Of a stretch of DNA of 26,957 bases, positions 1-11,343 are shown one piece after another. A program made the position numbers and the translations under genes. The stretch comes from a virus (taxonomy: Duplodnaviria; Caudoviricetes). The DNA is taken from positions 1-26,957 of the IMG/VR virus record IMGVR_UViG_3300033559_000291; one strand, written 5' to 3'. The notes beneath the pieces were generated by a model. The model had not been told where the DNA came from, made no database searches, and saw only the letters and a list, made by a program, of their open reading frames with translations. Numbering within the stretch: the first letter of the stretch is position 1; every line of letters begins with the position of its first letter.

Positions 1-318
1 AAAACAACCGATTCCGCCTACAGGTGGTATCACGATCATTTTGAGGACTTCACAAAGCCAATTCTTGATAAGATAGAAAGCGATTGGAATTATCGGTATG
101 CCTCATTTAAGCAGTTTTGCGACTATGTTCACGGGGAAGATTGCAATGATATTTTGCCAAGGCTAATACGGTTTTATGATGATATTTTACTCAAAAGAGG
201 ACAGATACTCTTTTCAATCGGTCATAATGACGCAAACTTTGAACCTGCCCTTGTCATCCTGTCTATGGAAGGACTATACACTGATTTGGGAATTATGCAA
301 CTCCTGAACGATTTTTGA
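1..318 (+). CDS. Hypothetical protein, 5'-truncated
   Basis: Frame 1 is open from base 1 to TGA at 316-318 (KTTDSAYRWYHDHFEDFTKPILDK...MQLLNDF); not in the ORF track; the other two + frames close early. Confidence 0.6.
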   Translation, partial: KTTDSAYRWYHDHFEDFTKPILDKIESDWNYRYASFKQFCDYVHGEDCNDILPRLIRFYDDILLKRGQILFSIGHNDANFEPALVILSMEGLYTDLGIMQLLNDF

Positions 319-332
319 ATTATATTACTCCT

Positions 333-365
333 GTCATCTTTCTTTTGTTGGATGTGGATTGAAAC
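333..365 (+). repeat. Solitary degenerate type I-C CRISPR-repeat-like sequence (not an array)
   Basis: GTCATCTTTCTTTTGTTGGATGTGGATTGAAAC: 33 nt, starts GTC, ends with the I-C 3' signature GTGGATTGAAAC, keeps the stem base CATCT/GGATG; intergenic. Confidence 0.6.
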
Positions 366-394
366 GGCTACTGCGTGGTTTTCTCCTTGAAGTG

Positions 395-424
395 AAAAGC
401 CTCCTTTTTTAGGGGGCTTTTTTT
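395..424. terminator. Bidirectional intrinsic terminator
   Basis: AAAAGCCTCC-TTTTTTA-GGGGGCTTTTTTT; lies between convergent units and contains the stop codon of the minus-strand gene. Confidence 0.8.
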
Positions 425-957
425 GTTGGGATAAATCCAATATGACAAAAACGGTATTTTTCAGAGTCCCTTTCCTCTCTTTTTTGGTAAATGTACCACC
501 CTGTATCGCTCGAAACACACTGATAAACCATTTCGGTTTTGAGCGGATGAACACCAAAGAACCTCATCAATTCTTTCATCACAAGATTTGCCCGATTAAA
601 GCCCTCTCTGCCTATTCCCAAAGCCTTACTCTGAAAAAGAACATCATGAATGACAAAGGCTATCATACTCTTTTCGTCATCTTTGGAAATAATTATCTCT
701 CCAATATCAGGGATAGAACCCAAGTCAGTAATTGTACCAGACTGTATCCGTATGTCGAGATGCCCGATAGAGCACCAAAACTGAAAGCGGATATGGTCAT
801 CAAAGATGTACCAAGTAGTTTTAGGGCTGTCGATCACATCGAGCGTCGGGATCTCTTTCCCAAGAACAAAAAAGTGGGATATGATGTCGTTTTCAAAAAA
901 TCTGGTATATGGCGTTATTGGCAGTCGCCAGTTGTCCTTCGTAAAGTTTTGTATCAT
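409..957 (-). CDS. DUF1353-like protein
   Basis: Motifs GTITDLGSIP, AFVIHDVLF, RANLVMKELM..GV..MVY fit DUF1353; start moved to ATG at 957 after an AAGGAG RBS. Confidence 0.75.
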   Translation of the reverse strand: MIQNFTKDNWRLPITPYTRFFENDIISHFFVLGKEIPTLDVIDSPKTTWYIFDDHIRFQFWCSIGHLDIRIQSGTITDLGSIPDIGEIIISKDDEKSMIAFVIHDVLFQSKALGIGREGFNRANLVMKELMRFFGVHPLKTEMVYQCVSSDTGWYIYQKREERDSEKYRFCHIGFIPTKKAP

Positions 958-1012
958 GGGGGGTATCTCCTTGTTTATTTTATAGTGTAAAATATAGAAA
1001 GGATGTGCTGAT

Positions 1013-1735
1013 ATGGCAAAGAAAAAGGTTGCACTCATAGTGGGGCACTGCTATTCAGGCGATAAAGGAGCTTGTTCAAGTGTTACCCCTGAACTGTCCG
1101 AATACTCATATAATTCACGGATCACCGCACGGATAAAAGAGCTTCTTGATGCAAAAGGCAAGGTTGAATCGGTTATTATCAGGAGAAAGTCAAAGAGTGA
1201 TGTCAAAGGTGTAAGCTCAAATATGGCTTCATCGGCAATCGAGAGAGCTTCTCTTTTTTCAGAGCAAGATTTGTGCAATGCAGAGAACCCCGATTTCGCT
1301 ATTGCTTTTCATGCGAACGCTGCCGAAAATTCCCTCAATGCCGAAAAGCTCGATGATACCATTCGTTTGGAAAACGGGAACAAAGTCGGAGTTTTTGAAA
1401 AAGTGAAAAGACTCTTTGACACTCCTGATGGGGCTGAAATTCTGATCTATGCTTTCCCCAATGGCAATGACAGCCCAAAAAGCAGAAAGATGGCTGAAAT
1501 ATTGCTGCCTGCTATCTGTAAAACTTTGGGCGTTAAAAAGAGATCAATCGTTTCAATCTCAAAAGTTGGGCAAAGAGGGTATTGGACTTTGAAAAGAATC
1601 ATTGCTCCAGTGGTGCTCCTCGAACCTTTTTTCATATCTGATGTAGAGGACTGCCTTAAAGCTCAAGTCCGTTTTGATGATCTTGCTTTTTGCATTGCAG
1701 AAAATATTGAGAAAATTGCTGAAGAGGTTATATGA
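1013..1735 (+). CDS. N-acetylmuramoyl-L-alanine amidase (Amidase_3), endolysin
   Basis: Zn/catalytic motifs LIVGH..GA, SEYSYN, AIAFHANA, GAEI, VLLEPFFISD; RBS AAGGA. Confidence 0.9.
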   Translation: MAKKKVALIVGHCYSGDKGACSSVTPELSEYSYNSRITARIKELLDAKGKVESVIIRRKSKSDVKGVSSNMASSAIERASLFSEQDLCNAENPDFAIAFHANAAENSLNAEKLDDTIRLENGNKVGVFEKVKRLFDTPDGAEILIYAFPNGNDSPKSRKMAEILLPAICKTLGVKKRSIVSISKVGQRGYWTLKRIIAPVVLLEPFFISDVEDCLKAQVRFDDLAFCIAENIEKIAEEVI

Positions 1736-1938
1736 AAAGATTTCTCGAAGAGTGGAAGTATGTTATCGGGACCAGTTCGGTCTTTCTTGTCTTGGGCTTT
1801 ATGATCGGGAGCTCTTGGCATGAGCAGTATGTCACAAAGATTCTTTTTGACGATGGTTTGGCAACCCGTGACAGTATAACCATGAAATATATTCCGTATT
1901 ACGAAAAACGAATGTCTACCTACAAAGAAAAGGACTAA
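1732..1938 (+). CDS. Small membrane protein (one predicted TM helix), possibly lysis-related
   Basis: ATGA overlap with the amidase, GAGG RBS, hydrophobic stretch VIGTSSVFLVLGFMIG. Confidence 0.65.
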   Translation: MKRFLEEWKYVIGTSSVFLVLGFMIGSSWHEQYVTKILFDDGLATRDSITMKYIPYYEKRMSTYKEKD

Positions 1939-1940
1939 TT

Positions 1941-2129
1941 ATGAAGATCAAGGCGTTTGGCGTAGAGCTGGTGCTCAGTGGCGAAGAGGCTCAGGCTTTT
2001 TTGAAAAGAGAACAATTGGTTGAACAGCTTCTCCTTGCAAATCCCGAAGCTGATGCAAAGCTCGAAGAAAAAAGCAAAATGGTCGCTCGGCAGATGGTTG
2101 ATGGTATTTCAAAACTTTTGGGCAACTAA
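1941..2129 (+). CDS. Hypothetical protein, 62 aa
   Basis: AAGGA RBS, tightly packed, followed by a hairpin. Confidence 0.7.
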   Translation: MKIKAFGVELVLSGEEAQAFLKREQLVEQLLLANPEADAKLEEKSKMVARQMVDGISKLLGN

Positions 2130-2164
2130 AAGAAAAAGCCCCTTTCGGGACTTCTTTATTTTTT
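2128..2164. terminator. Probable bidirectional terminator between convergent genes
   Basis: AAGCCCC-TTTC-GGGACTT (one mismatch) flanked by A and T tracts. Confidence 0.55.
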
Positions 2165-2497
2165 CAATAAAACCGTCTTACTCTGAGGCGGTTTTTGTTT
2201 TTCAGGGGAGATTTTCTTTTTACTGATAGTCTCCTGTAGGGTGTTATCATGTTTTGTCGATGTGTCTTTTGGAGAAAAACCACTATCCTTTTTAGGGATA
2301 ATATCTTCCTGCAGAGATTTTTGGTCAAGGTATCTCTTCATGTTTTGCTGAGAGATACTATCAATTTTTGGTGATATATCCTGTGATTGTGGCACTGGTG
2401 TATATCGGGGGCTTCTCGATGACACCTTTTCATCTTTGGCACAAGCCAGTATCAGCACAAACATTGTCATTAGCATAATAAGTACAAGATTTTTCAT
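2156..2497 (-). CDS. Predicted lipoprotein
   Basis: MKNLVLIMLMTMFVLILA-C: basic N-terminus, hydrophobic core, lipobox ILAC, then a low-complexity S/K/P/Q-rich body. Confidence 0.75.
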   Translation of the reverse strand: MKNLVLIMLMTMFVLILACAKDEKVSSRSPRYTPVPQSQDISPKIDSISQQNMKRYLDQKSLQEDIIPKKDSGFSPKDTSTKHDNTLQETISKKKISPEKQKPPQSKTVLLKK

Positions 2498-2970
2498 TAC
2501 ACAATATCCTTGAGATTTGAAACAGCATCGAGCATGGTGTGAATTGCGTCACGAGTTTTGACACAATCGACGTAGGAAAGAACGAGATCGACCGATTTTA
2601 CATAGGCTTCAAACTTTTCCTTTTTGTAGATGTCTTCAAACTTTTTGTTTTTGGCTTTGGACGATTCAAGCTCTTCTTTCAGCCTTTTGTTTTCAGTCTC
2701 CAAAAGCTCAACACGCTTTTGCACTTCGTCTTCTTCACCATCTGGCAAATGAAGATCAGGAGCACTACTGCCAATCAGGGGGAATTTTACAAGCTCACCA
2801 ATGATTTCTTTTTTCTGATCTTCGGAAAGAGCGTCGAGATTATCGCCAATTGCAGAGATAGCACCAATTACGGTTGGAGCATCTTCTCTGAGTTCGGCTC
2901 TTGTCGCCTCTCTTACTAAAATCCCTGCAACATTTTGCAGTTCTCCAGTTTTGTCAATTTCTGCACCCAT
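2497..2970 (-). CDS. Hypothetical protein with coiled-coil segment
   Basis: AAGGAAG RBS before ATG at 2970; heptad-like VQKRVELLETENKRLKEELE; TAATG coupling to the lipoprotein gene. Confidence 0.75.
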   Translation of the reverse strand: MGAEIDKTGELQNVAGILVREATRAELREDAPTVIGAISAIGDNLDALSEDQKKEIIGELVKFPLIGSSAPDLHLPDGEEDEVQKRVELLETENKRLKEELESSKAKNKKFEDIYKKEKFEAYVKSVDLVLSYVDCVKTRDAIHTMLDAVSNLKDIV

Positions 2971-3007
2971 AGTCACTTCCTTTTATAATAGGGTAATAAG
3001 TACAGGT

Positions 3008-3036: not shown

Positions 3037-3059
3037 ATTGGTCAAATATCAATATTCAC

Positions 3060-3107
3060 TAACTATAAAATAACTATTGATTAACTATAAAATAGAATGT
3101 ATATTAT
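3060..3107 (+). promoter_or_regulatory. 48-bp duplicated promoter/operator, copy 1
   Basis: TAACTATAAAATAACTATTGATTAACTATAAAATAGAATGTATATTAT contains TTGATT-17-TATATT; identical to 3406-3453. Confidence 0.8.
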
Positions 3108-3378: not shown

Positions 3379-3405
3379 TATTTTTGTGATTAAAAAATAG
3401 TTGAT

Positions 3406-3453
3406 TAACTATAAAATAACTATTGATTAACTATAAAATAGAATGTATATTAT
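3406..3453 (+). promoter_or_regulatory. 48-bp duplicated promoter/operator, copy 2
   Basis: Exact copy of 3060-3107; with upstream TTGAT it forms two 22-bp tandem units (3401-3444). Confidence 0.8.
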
Positions 3454-3489: not shown

Positions 3490-3810
3490 ATGACAGTAGA
3501 AAAAGTAACAGTAGCAAACCTTGATGAGCTTACAAGACTCATCGACGATCAGAATGTATCAATCGTAGCAGTGGACACAAGTTGTGCCTACTCATACGGT
3601 TCCGACAATTCTTCTTTCGGTGGCATTGAGTGTGAAGCAAGATATGAAGAGCTTGCAATTGAGATTGGCTTTGAGGTTGATGAAGACGAACTTGCGGATA
3701 CTCTTTGTGAGTGTGCAAGAGAAGATGTTGAAGATTCAGGCTTTGACATCTACCCAGTTCTCACAAAAAATGATGATGGGAGCTACTCTCTCGATTGGCA
3801 AACAGAATAA
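3490..3810 (+). CDS. Highly acidic small protein (candidate DNA mimic / anti-defence)
   Basis: AAGGAG RBS; 28 D/E versus 5 K/R in 106 aa; the function is inference. Confidence 0.75.
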   Translation: MTVEKVTVANLDELTRLIDDQNVSIVAVDTSCAYSYGSDNSSFGGIECEARYEELAIEIGFEVDEDELADTLCECAREDVEDSGFDIYPVLTKNDDGSYSLDWQTE

Positions 3811-9055: not shown

Positions 9056-9949
9056 ATGGCAAGACCAACAAAGCAAGGAATTGACTATTTCCCACTCGAT
9101 TGCTACGATGACGATAAAATAAAGTTTATAAGAATCAAGTATAAGCTTGCTGGTGTTGGTGTTGTTTTTGAGCTTTTCAGACATATCTATTCTCAGGGGT
9201 ATTGGTGCAAATGGTCAGACGACGAGGCAATAATATTCTCTGATGAAATTAAGGCAGACTATGAGCTTGTTGTAAATGTTGTCGAAGAGTGCCTAAAGAG
9301 GGATGTTTTTAACCATTCTATATTCAAGAGTTTTGGTGCTCTCACTTCTAAGGGGATTCAGTCAAGGTACAAAGAGGCTTGCAGAAGAAGAAAGGATATT
9401 GAGATAGTAAAAGATTATTTGCTTTTTGACGGTCTAAATTCAAATTGCCAACACAACGACGGAAATAATGGAGTTAATGACGGCAATAATGGAGTTAATG
9501 ACGGCATAGTGACGGCAGAAGTACAGCAAAACGGAGTTAATGACGGCAAAAGTACACAAAGTAAAGTAAAAGAAATAAAAGAATATAAAGAGGCAAAAAA
9601 TCCATCCAAGAATTCGGATAATTTTTATAACAGTGTTCCTAAATATTCCGAATTTACTTTTCAGACCATCGAGTATTGGAATAAGAGGCTCGACACAAAC
9701 TATAAGCCTCTGCCAATGTTTGCTGAAAAGGTTGAGTCAAGAAAAGATAGCGTTGATATTGGCTCAATGATGAACGCAATAGATGCAGTAAGAAAAGAGA
9801 AACGCAAAGACGATACGATTTATAGGGATATTGACCTTGTAAAGTTTTTTAGCTCTGATAAAATTTTTGAATACTTTGTATCTCTCGGTGTTGAGCTGGA
9901 GGCAGAGAGAGTCAGAGAAGAAAAAAGAAAGGAAGTAGGTTTCAGATGA
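9056..9949 (+). CDS. Phage replication initiator (DUF4373/Lin1244-like N-terminus)
   Basis: MARPTKQGIDYFPLD..DDKI..I..KY...G..IY..GY...W..LTSKGIQ.RY; central iteron-encoded linker; next to the helicase. Confidence 0.85.
   Translation: MARPTKQGIDYFPLDCYDDDKIKFIRIKYKLAGVGVVFELFRHIYSQGYWCKWSDDEAIIFSDEIKADYELVVNVVEECLKRDVFNHSIFKSFGALTSKGIQSRYKEACRRRKDIEIVKDYLLFDGLNSNCQHNDGNNGVNDGNNGVNDGIVTAEVQQNGVNDGKSTQSKVKEIKEYKEAKNPSKNSDNFYNSVPKYSEFTFQTIEYWNKRLDTNYKPLPMFAEKVESRKDSVDIGSMMNAIDAVRKEKRKDDTIYRDIDLVKFFSSDKIFEYFVSLGVELEAERVREEKRKEVGFR
9458..9600 (+). repeat. Iteron-like direct repeats plus A-rich tract: probable replication origin
   Basis: 21-bp tandem GACGG(A/C)AATAATGGAGTTAAT x2; core GGAGTTAATGACGGCA at 9470, 9491 and 9533; A-rich 9557-9600. 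Confidence 0.75.
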
Positions 9950-11343
9950 TACTATACGACCACGATAAAGAGAGGCTTATATTGGCTTCTGTTATTTCAG
10001 ATGCTTCTGATTACGGTAGCAACAGCGTTATGGCTGATGAAATGCTTTCAGTTCTTGAGCATGATGATTTTCATAGCCCACTGCATAGCACTGTTTTTGA
10101 TGCAATTTTGAAATGTAGGAATAAAAATGTTCCATCTGATTTGGGTCAAATGTCTACAATGATCCCAGACGAAGCAGTTTTCATATCTTCTTGTTGCAGT
10201 GTCTATTCTACGACAACAAAAATAGATAATCTCTGCCAAGACATTAAGATTCTTACAAGGGGTAGAAAAGTTAGGCAGTCAGCAGAGGCAACAATTCACG
10301 CATTAGACACTGGTAATGATGTCTCTCTTGCAATATCTAACGCAGAAAAGATGATGTTTTCTGCAACTGAGGAGAAAACAATATCAGACGAATCAGGAAC
10401 AATTAGAGATAAAAGACAATCTTACATGAAAGAGATAGAAGAAGAAATGGTTATGGATGATGCCATAATAGGCGTACCATCTGGTTTAACAGCACTTGAT
10501 AATCTTGTTATGGGATTCCGAAAAACAGAGCACATAATACTATCAGCAAGACCATCAATGGGAAAGTCGGCATTTGCGGTATCTATGATGGTTAGGCAGG
10601 CAAAAATGGGCTTTAAGCCTGTTATGTTTTCGCTCGAAATGGGAATGAGAGAGCTTCAAAACAGATACTATTCGGCATACTCTGCCATAGATGGTGGGTT
10701 TTCAGTAGCTTTTCAAGACCTAAGAACTCCAAAAGTCAGAAATGCAGTTGATAAAAATGGCAACATAGTCAAAGACCATAATGGCGACATGATTATAAAA
10801 GGGCTCACAGTTGAAAAACTGAATAGGCTTGGTGGGATTATGCAAGACAAATCAAATGCTAATATCTACTTGGATTGCTCGCCTTATAACACTGTTTCAA
10901 GAATATGCTCTATCATTCGCAGGATGGTTGCTTCTGGAAATTGTGACATTGCATATATTGACCATTATCTATTGCTTGTAAAAGACGAATCACGAGAGCG
11001 TGAAGAGCTTAACGGTATAGCAAAAGCGTTCAAAAGGCTTGCAATAGAGTGCAAAATACCTATCGTTGGTATACACCAACTTGGAAGAGAAGTTGAGAAG
11101 CAGAATAGGAAGCCAAGAATGAGTGATCTTTCTGGAAGTGGTGCAATAGAACAATCTGCCGACATTATACTTTTTCCATACAGAGAAAGCGTTATTGGTG
11201 GAGACAAAAAACCATCAGAAGCAGAGTTGATAATTGGAAAAGGAAGGAGCGTTGAGGGAGGTTGCTTAGACCTGCATTTTGATACCGTAACGGCTTCTTT
11301 TATGGACAAAAAAGGTGAGGATTACGATGGAAAAAGATTCTAA
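9946..11343 (+). CDS. dnaB: Replicative DNA helicase, DnaB family
   Basis: GVPSGL..LD...G, ARPSMGKS Walker A, FSLEM, IDHY, QL.R, P.MSDL..SGAIEQ.AD. Confidence 0.95.
   Translation: MILYDHDKERLILASVISDASDYGSNSVMADEMLSVLEHDDFHSPLHSTVFDAILKCRNKNVPSDLGQMSTMIPDEAVFISSCCSVYSTTTKIDNLCQDIKILTRGRKVRQSAEATIHALDTGNDVSLAISNAEKMMFSATEEKTISDESGTIRDKRQSYMKEIEEEMVMDDAIIGVPSGLTALDNLVMGFRKTEHIILSARPSMGKSAFAVSMMVRQAKMGFKPVMFSLEMGMRELQNRYYSAYSAIDGGFSVAFQDLRTPKVRNAVDKNGNIVKDHNGDMIIKGLTVEKLNRLGGIMQDKSNANIYLDCSPYNTVSRICSIIRRMVASGNCDIAYIDHYLLLVKDESREREELNGIAKAFKRLAIECKIPIVGIHQLGREVEKQNRKPRMSDLSGSGAIEQSADIILFPYRESVIGGDKKPSEAELIIGKGRSVEGGCLDLHFDTVTASFMDKKGEDYDGKRF

Follow-up and report, generated by a model that had tools for sequence, protein, structure and literature searches.

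Solitary repeat units of viruses have been described by Camara-Wilpert et al. (2023; PMC10651486), and among them RacrIC1, which lies 11 nt after acrIC5, is reported to inhibit the type I-C system. Racrs commonly, though not obligatorily, have an acr gene as neighbour. The SRUFinder rule given in the same paper sets a floor of 90% for both identity and coverage against known array repeats. Here we describe a single phage repeat of type I-C character at positions 333 to 365 of a 26,957-nt fragment of a tailed phage, which comprises the whole virus record and is referred to below as the window. Like the units of that paper, it is intergenic, without a further repeat, full or partial, within 100 bp and without a cas gene nearby, and like RacrIC1 it lies just after an upstream open reading frame (ORF), the stop of which is 14 nt ahead of the repeat start, compared with the 11 nt after acrIC5. 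It differs from them in that its identity to the closest array repeat found is 82%, which is outside the paper's 90% search rule, and in that no Acr homologue was found beside it. The element is also absent from the 2,193-row table of solitary repeat units of that paper, where its tail motif occurs once, in another sequence.

The Cracr RNAs of phages (Liu et al., bioRxiv 10.1101/2024.10.29.618823) are described as copies of host creR or creA, in which a repeat-like and a spacer-like unit are followed by a rho-independent terminator, and type I-C cases are listed among them. The element in the window has this same layout, a repeat-like unit, a spacer-like unit and a terminator on a mobile element. 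Cracrs are defined there by at least 9 PAM-proximal bases shared with the spacer or the target of a host CreR/CreA, whereas the best agreement of the window guide is 7 nt in 70 loci, and the guide is longer than the 17 to 21 nt given for I-F Cracrs. A crRNA-like regulator has also been described for type I-C loci (Shu et al., bioRxiv 10.1101/2024.12.27.630466). The crlRNA of these Nezha/CRISIS loci is reported to have a degenerate repeat that is cut to an 11-nt handle, as is predicted for the window, together with a 3' hairpin and the TTC PAM logic. As described, crlRNAs are located within cas loci beside their target promoter, whereas the window unit is on a phage, possesses a longer, GC-rich guide and has no target found. 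Viral mini-arrays (bioRxiv 10.1101/2023.03.03.530964) share with the window element the phage-borne repeat with a spacer-length unit and the dependence on host Cas proteins; they are defined by two or more repeats, whereas the window has one, with a terminator in the position of the second repeat and no protospacer found.

Anatomy of the element and its phage

On the plus strand, the element consists of a -10-like hexamer (TATATT, 321 to 326), a gap of 6 nt, a 33-nt repeat (333 to 365), a spacer-like segment (366 to 398) and an intrinsic terminator (395 to 424) that contains a GCCTCC/GGGGGC hairpin (399 to 417) and a tract of seven U (418 to 424); all of these positions agree with those given in a preliminary description of the locus. 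The hexamer is called -10-like by comparison with the sigma-70 -10 consensus. Upstream of the repeat a -35 box is absent, and the promoter listing gives no plus-strand promoter here. This weakness had been conceded before, as had the degenerate upper stem of the repeat.

The repeat has a 2-nt 5' overhang, a 5-bp stem (335 to 339 paired with 350 to 354) of -3.8 kcal/mol, a degenerate upper stem and an 11-nt 3' tail (355 to 365) starting with UGG, and the base pair 335-354 has a probability of 0.96 in the folded full RNA. By sequence and predicted fold, the overhang, stem and tail are those of a Cas5c substrate (PMC8524198), while the 5-bp stem falls short of the 7-bp stem with a 5-nt loop of a type I-C repeat. 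Part of the handle is predicted to pair with the guide (mean unpaired 0.30), although not beyond shuffled guides, of which 32 of 300 are as low, and no more than in the host unit L154. The spacer-like segment had been taken to be 33 nt long, which is correct as the length to the hairpin and too long for the free part: its last four bases (AAAA, 395 to 398) pair with the U tract, and because they belong to the terminator stem the guide is 29 to 33 nt long, with 29 nt free.

The terminator fold has a z value of -3.2, and owing to a G-U pair its core is more stable on the plus strand (-12.1 kcal/mol) than on the opposite strand (-6.8 kcal/mol). Convergent with the element is a minus-strand gene of 182 aa (409 to 957) with a DUF1353 Pfam profile; its last codons form the 3' arm of the terminator, and its stop codon is in the hairpin loop. 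Since the terminator is stronger on the plus strand and the DUF1353 stop codon is in its loop, it ends a plus-strand transcript. Such an end would suit the ORF upstream just as well as a small RNA. The 3' hairpin had been counted as evidence of crRNA mimicry; it is a normal intrinsic terminator and gives no independent support, because any gene here would need one. The DUF1353 gene, which is antisense and directly before the amidase, encodes at 409 to 435 the C-terminus PTKKAP and its stop, and an identical C-terminus is found in the 90%-identical protein P0004, hinting that the terminator may be conserved in that relative.

The upstream ORF (1 to 318, plus strand) is the 3' part of a phage gene that is open at its 5' end and encodes at least 105 aa of an acidic protein (pI 4.7), and its transcript is a possible read-through source of the element RNA. 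It has no family in Pfam, PHROG or NCBIfam, and its best ESM Atlas score of 0.78 is at chance level; no Acr family adjoining the element was found with the same resources.

The preliminary description held that the repeat is alone and that the window has no cas genes, and both statements stand. The 12-nt repeat tail has a single exact copy in the window, with three look-alikes of two mismatches, all within ORFs, and within about 130 nt on either side the best candidate for a second repeat agrees at 15 to 16 of 33 positions. No Pfam cas family is present among the 42 window ORFs. The tail with up to two mismatches was not found in L101, a further 10 kb of this phage, either. The pattern of GTC, 15 to 19 nt and the tail occurred in 1 of 100 shuffles of the window, and its Markov expectation is 9e-4 per window, or 5e-5 with three more stem pairs; these figures exclude the intergenic position, the -10 box and the terminator, and counting the intergenic position and the -10 spacing lowers them.

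Several other candidates were rejected. A degenerate upstream repeat at 253 is inside ORF 1-318 and has no tail, and a reading of the guide as a gene end is contradicted by an in-frame stop inside the repeat tail. Rfam leader and sRNA matches were all below the gathering score and were caused by the terminator. An integration scar was also rejected, as the alignment between guide and upstream flank is equalled by 756 of 2000 random 40-mers.

The window carries genes for an amidase, an exonuclease, a replication initiator, DnaB, a terminase, a portal and a capsid protein, and the sequencing runs that contain the phage are labelled as microbial mat metagenome. In one run (X1), a contig that may be the record's own source is identical to the window over 1 to 1689 with zero differences. 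A search of IMG/VR with the terminase found G001, which is the same phage (99.995% over 21,281 nt); it starts at window position 1756, is without the solitary repeat element and contributes tail genes beyond the window. Because the window and G001 leave the genome incomplete, cas or acr genes may exist elsewhere in it. At the end of G001, L101 contains an ORF (9557 to 10009) that is open at its 3' end and has a hydrophobic stretch at the N-terminus, and the window starts with a 5'-open ORF; if the genome is circular, the L101 ORF and ORF 1-318 might be the opposite ends of a single late gene, and no overlap between the end of G001 and the start of the window was found. Elsewhere in the window, a 58-bp promoter-like block is duplicated at 3051 to 3107 and 3396 to 3453 (95%), each copy ahead of a small acidic ORF. 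The ORF at 3490 to 3810 (pI 4.05, 28 D/E versus 5 K/R) has a DNA-mimic or Acr-like profile, with neither a family nor a usable ESM Atlas match.

Comparison with type I-C arrays and host crRNA-like genes

The two ends of the window repeat were combined into a search pattern, which matched 88 stretches in GTDB genomes, including 32 arrays with 19 distinct repeats and 56 single matches. Among the array spacers, 337 of 387 are 33 to 35 nt long. Eighteen of 27 genomes chosen from the pattern matches have cas5c over the cut-off, and in G022, G026, G027 and G028 the array is located 3 to 5.5 kb from cas5c. Because identical ends occur in cas5c-linked arrays, the ends of the window repeat can be assigned on their sequence to type I-C, as had been proposed before. 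The likeness to array repeats that was then to be looked for is found in these ends and is incomplete over the whole repeat, as the closest of the 19 distinct repeats is identical at 27 of 33 positions and the 90% rule of SRUFinder is not reached against these 19. Relative to the comparators, the repeat differs only in the upper stem and the loop, whereas the 21 end positions and the stem base are all unchanged, a conservation that is partly circular because the comparators were selected by those ends. The array repeat stems range from -9.3 to -16.1 kcal/mol over the 19 distinct repeats, and the window repeat, at -3.8 kcal/mol, is outside this range.

Dispersed single type I-C-like repeats were observed in the MAGs G013 (12 copies), G014 (12), G015 (8), G016 (3) and G019 (3). 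In these (e.g., L021, L024, L051, L060 and L074; L006, L028, L029, L057 and L080), a conserved block of about 100 to 150 nt precedes each repeat and unrelated DNA follows it, which looks like mobile units of leader plus repeat or an orphan-guide family. A brief literature search found no published description of such units.

The nearest likeness was found among host genes. Ten genomes with a single-copy unit were examined with its surroundings, and in six of them, which belong to four different lineages (L154 to L159 in G003, G004, G009, G007, G008 and G010), the unit is just upstream of cas5c or the cas operon, with a guide that matches a TTC-flanked site 30 to 250 nt away. The matches are contiguous over 15, 13, 17 and 14 positions in L154, L157, L158 and L159, respectively, and include 14 and 13 of 15 counted positions in L155 and L156. 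In guides of this kind, positions 6, 12 and 18 need not pair with the target. For the other four units (L160 to L163), no TTC-flanked guide match was found nearby. The arrays of G003, G004, G007, G008 and G010 carry other, GC-rich repeats than the single unit does.

The six host crRNA-like genes have the same repeat ends as the window and mostly the same -10 spacing: a -10-like hexamer is located 6 nt before the repeat in four of the six and in the viral units L178 and L276, compared with a background of 386 in 53,902 positions. Their repeat stems range from -3.1 to -8.6 kcal/mol, and the window stem is within this range. Judged by its weak stem and the -10 spacing, the window unit is closer to these host regulatory genes than to arrays, and the crRNA-like anatomy claimed for the element is borne out in that the layout of promoter, repeat, guide and terminator is common to them. 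The guide itself appears unlike one that targets a promoter, with a GC content over 20 nt of 55% versus 5 to 35% in the six promoter-targeting host guides, and a length of 29 to 33 nt versus about 19 to 27 nt in five host units that end in a terminator, as read from their folds. A GTCATC start is not supported as a general hallmark of host regulators by a sample of 60 cas5c loci (within 1.5 kb on either side), in which only one clear unit was found, that of the seed genome.

Searches for guide targets and relatives

A match of segment 366 to 398 beside a TTC PAM had been suggested as a check, and none beyond chance was found in the phage, IMG/VR, the metagenomes or the sampled genomes. The best PAM-anchored seed was 7 nt in the window and L101, leaving no target in the phage itself, and TTC/TTA-anchored seeds were likewise 7 nt at best in the 60 cas5c loci and 10 host loci. 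In IMG/VR (6 pattern matches) and metagenomes (52), the best guide match had 23 of 33 identities; these pattern searches required exact seeds, such that mutated targets would be missed. Only matches with E of at least 1 were obtained in GenBank phages. A 14-base pattern of PAM and seed was found in 4 of 401 sampled genomes, all four times within ORFs, versus 11 control matches. The true host is probably absent from the loci and genomes screened for seeds, such that the missing target is weak evidence and the models in which the guide is used stay alive.

Relatives with the element were also sought in IMG/VR and none was retrieved: the amidase led to 8 stretches, none of which was confirmed, and DUF1353 to none; amidase alignment gave 4 distant relatives (23 to 46% identity). 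Contigs of 1,410 nt encode homologues of the DUF1353 protein (90%) and of the amidase (78%). Two scans of IMG/VR with the tail (at least 120 loci from 37 of 64 parts and at least 120 from 26 of 64 parts) gave, among the matches listed, none that resembled the window near the match. For the host, no CRISPR-flanked partial match to window 1 to 23,500 was among the matches listed for 4 runs, the best capsid match in 401 genomes was 36%, and other look-ups gave only distant or mixed hints.

Other viral units were observed on the way. The unrelated viral contigs L178, L197, L207, L210, L276 and L285 have the same tail in either a type I-C repeat with guide and hairpin or a two-repeat mini-array. 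L002 (identical with L246) contains at 169 to 201 a viral solitary type I-C repeat with a direct repeat of about 12 nt on both sides, like an integration scar.

Proposed function and alternative explanations

From the sequence, the layout, the I-C-type ends and the likeness to arrays and host regulators, we tentatively infer that the element is a Racr-type RNA anti-CRISPR, a decoy processed by Cas5c that would act against the type I-C Cascade of the host. The RNA would be transcribed from near 333 or by read-through from ORF 1-318, and host Cas5c would cut it between 354 and 355 to leave an 11-nt 5' handle on a product of about 52 to 70 nt. Cas5c, Cas7 and Cas8c would then assemble on this RNA, with fewer complexes carrying anti-phage guides as a result. 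The element probably derives from a creR-like regulatory gene of a host, the guide of which later ceased to point at a promoter.

The decoy is ranked first because an RNA of this form, once loaded, would in any case draw on the subunits and because nothing points to a target, and it is favoured over a working guide because the guide is 55% GC and has no target found. It is consistent with repeat ends shared with arrays (32 of the 88 genome loci, found with a pattern drawn from the window) and with changes found only in the upper stem and loop, as Cas5c of B. halodurans is reported to recognise the stem base and the 3' overhang and not the loop (PMC8524198). A stem as weak as those of the host crRNA-like genes, 6 of 10 such units being beside cas genes, may also speak for it, and a spacer-mutated Cracr has been proposed to work by sequestration (bioRxiv 2024.10.29.618823). 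Counting against the decoy are the lack of a -35 box, the best repeat identity of 82%, the partly paired handle and the lack of an adjoining Acr family, and neither a host with a type I-C system nor a relative with the locus was found in the searches above.

A Cracr in the strict sense, in which the first 9 to 17 bases of the loaded RNA would steer Cascade to a TTC-flanked site in the promoter of a host cas or defence gene and silence it, is unlikely. The layout of the element is that of the host creR-like genes that target cas promoters and of the published Cracrs, those of type I-C included (bioRxiv 2024.10.29.618823), whereas the GC-rich guide exceeds the length found in the terminator-ended host units, the best seed is 7 nt in 70 loci, and the seed pattern is rarer in the 401 genomes, among which the host probably is not, than the control matches.

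Ranked behind it, and also unlikely, is a relic, that is, a once-captured repeat or host regulatory gene that is decaying in a 3' untranslated region, with a terminator that serves ORF 1-318. The lack of a -35 box, a target and a conserved relative would all be expected of a relic, and a terminator is expected anyway between convergent genes. Decay is harder to reconcile with differences that spare all the end positions and the stem base, even though the comparators were found with those ends, with a -10 box spaced as in functional units and with the lack of a scar-type flanking duplication.

We consider it more doubtful still that the element is a one-repeat mini-array, the full 33-nt guide and terminator of which would use the host Cascade-Cas3 against a rival phage or plasmid. 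The 33 nt to the GC stem is the usual length of an array spacer, the viral unit L178 is similar in length, and the spacers of viral mini-arrays are reported to target mostly other viruses (bioRxiv 2023.03.03.530964). Against this, no protospacer was found with the exact-seed patterns, and without a second repeat there would be no canonical 3' handle. Just as doubtful is a captured host creR-type gene that would serve, at full spacer length and capped by the terminator, as one complete crRNA. It would turn the I-C Cascade-Cas3 of the host against a defence locus of that host or a rival phage, and ORF 1-318, in the same transcript, might then encode a new Acr.

A chance likeness in an AT-rich intergenic stretch is most improbable. 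In its favour, very many windows were scanned, no CRISPR-repeat family was found in window 1 to 3000 with Rfam at E values up to 10, and the viral matches to the 15-nt tail alone (at least 120) are mostly without the repeat head (GTC and CATC both in 4 of 120, among the matches listed). Against it, the expectation for head, tail and stem together is the 5e-5 per window given above, and a reversed control pattern had 0 matches in 27 genomes.

Phage RNAs of the Racr and Cracr kind, type I-C included, are already published, and the principle is unchanged by the element described here. What it contributes is a further case, from a mat phage that is uncultured and has few known relatives; its weak-stem form is probably missed by repeat searches at 90% identity. 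This suggests that current counts of phage crRNA-like RNAs may be too low and that some of these RNAs may derive from host regulatory genes rather than from arrays. If the decoy reading holds, the element would be a compact candidate inhibitor of type I-C systems.
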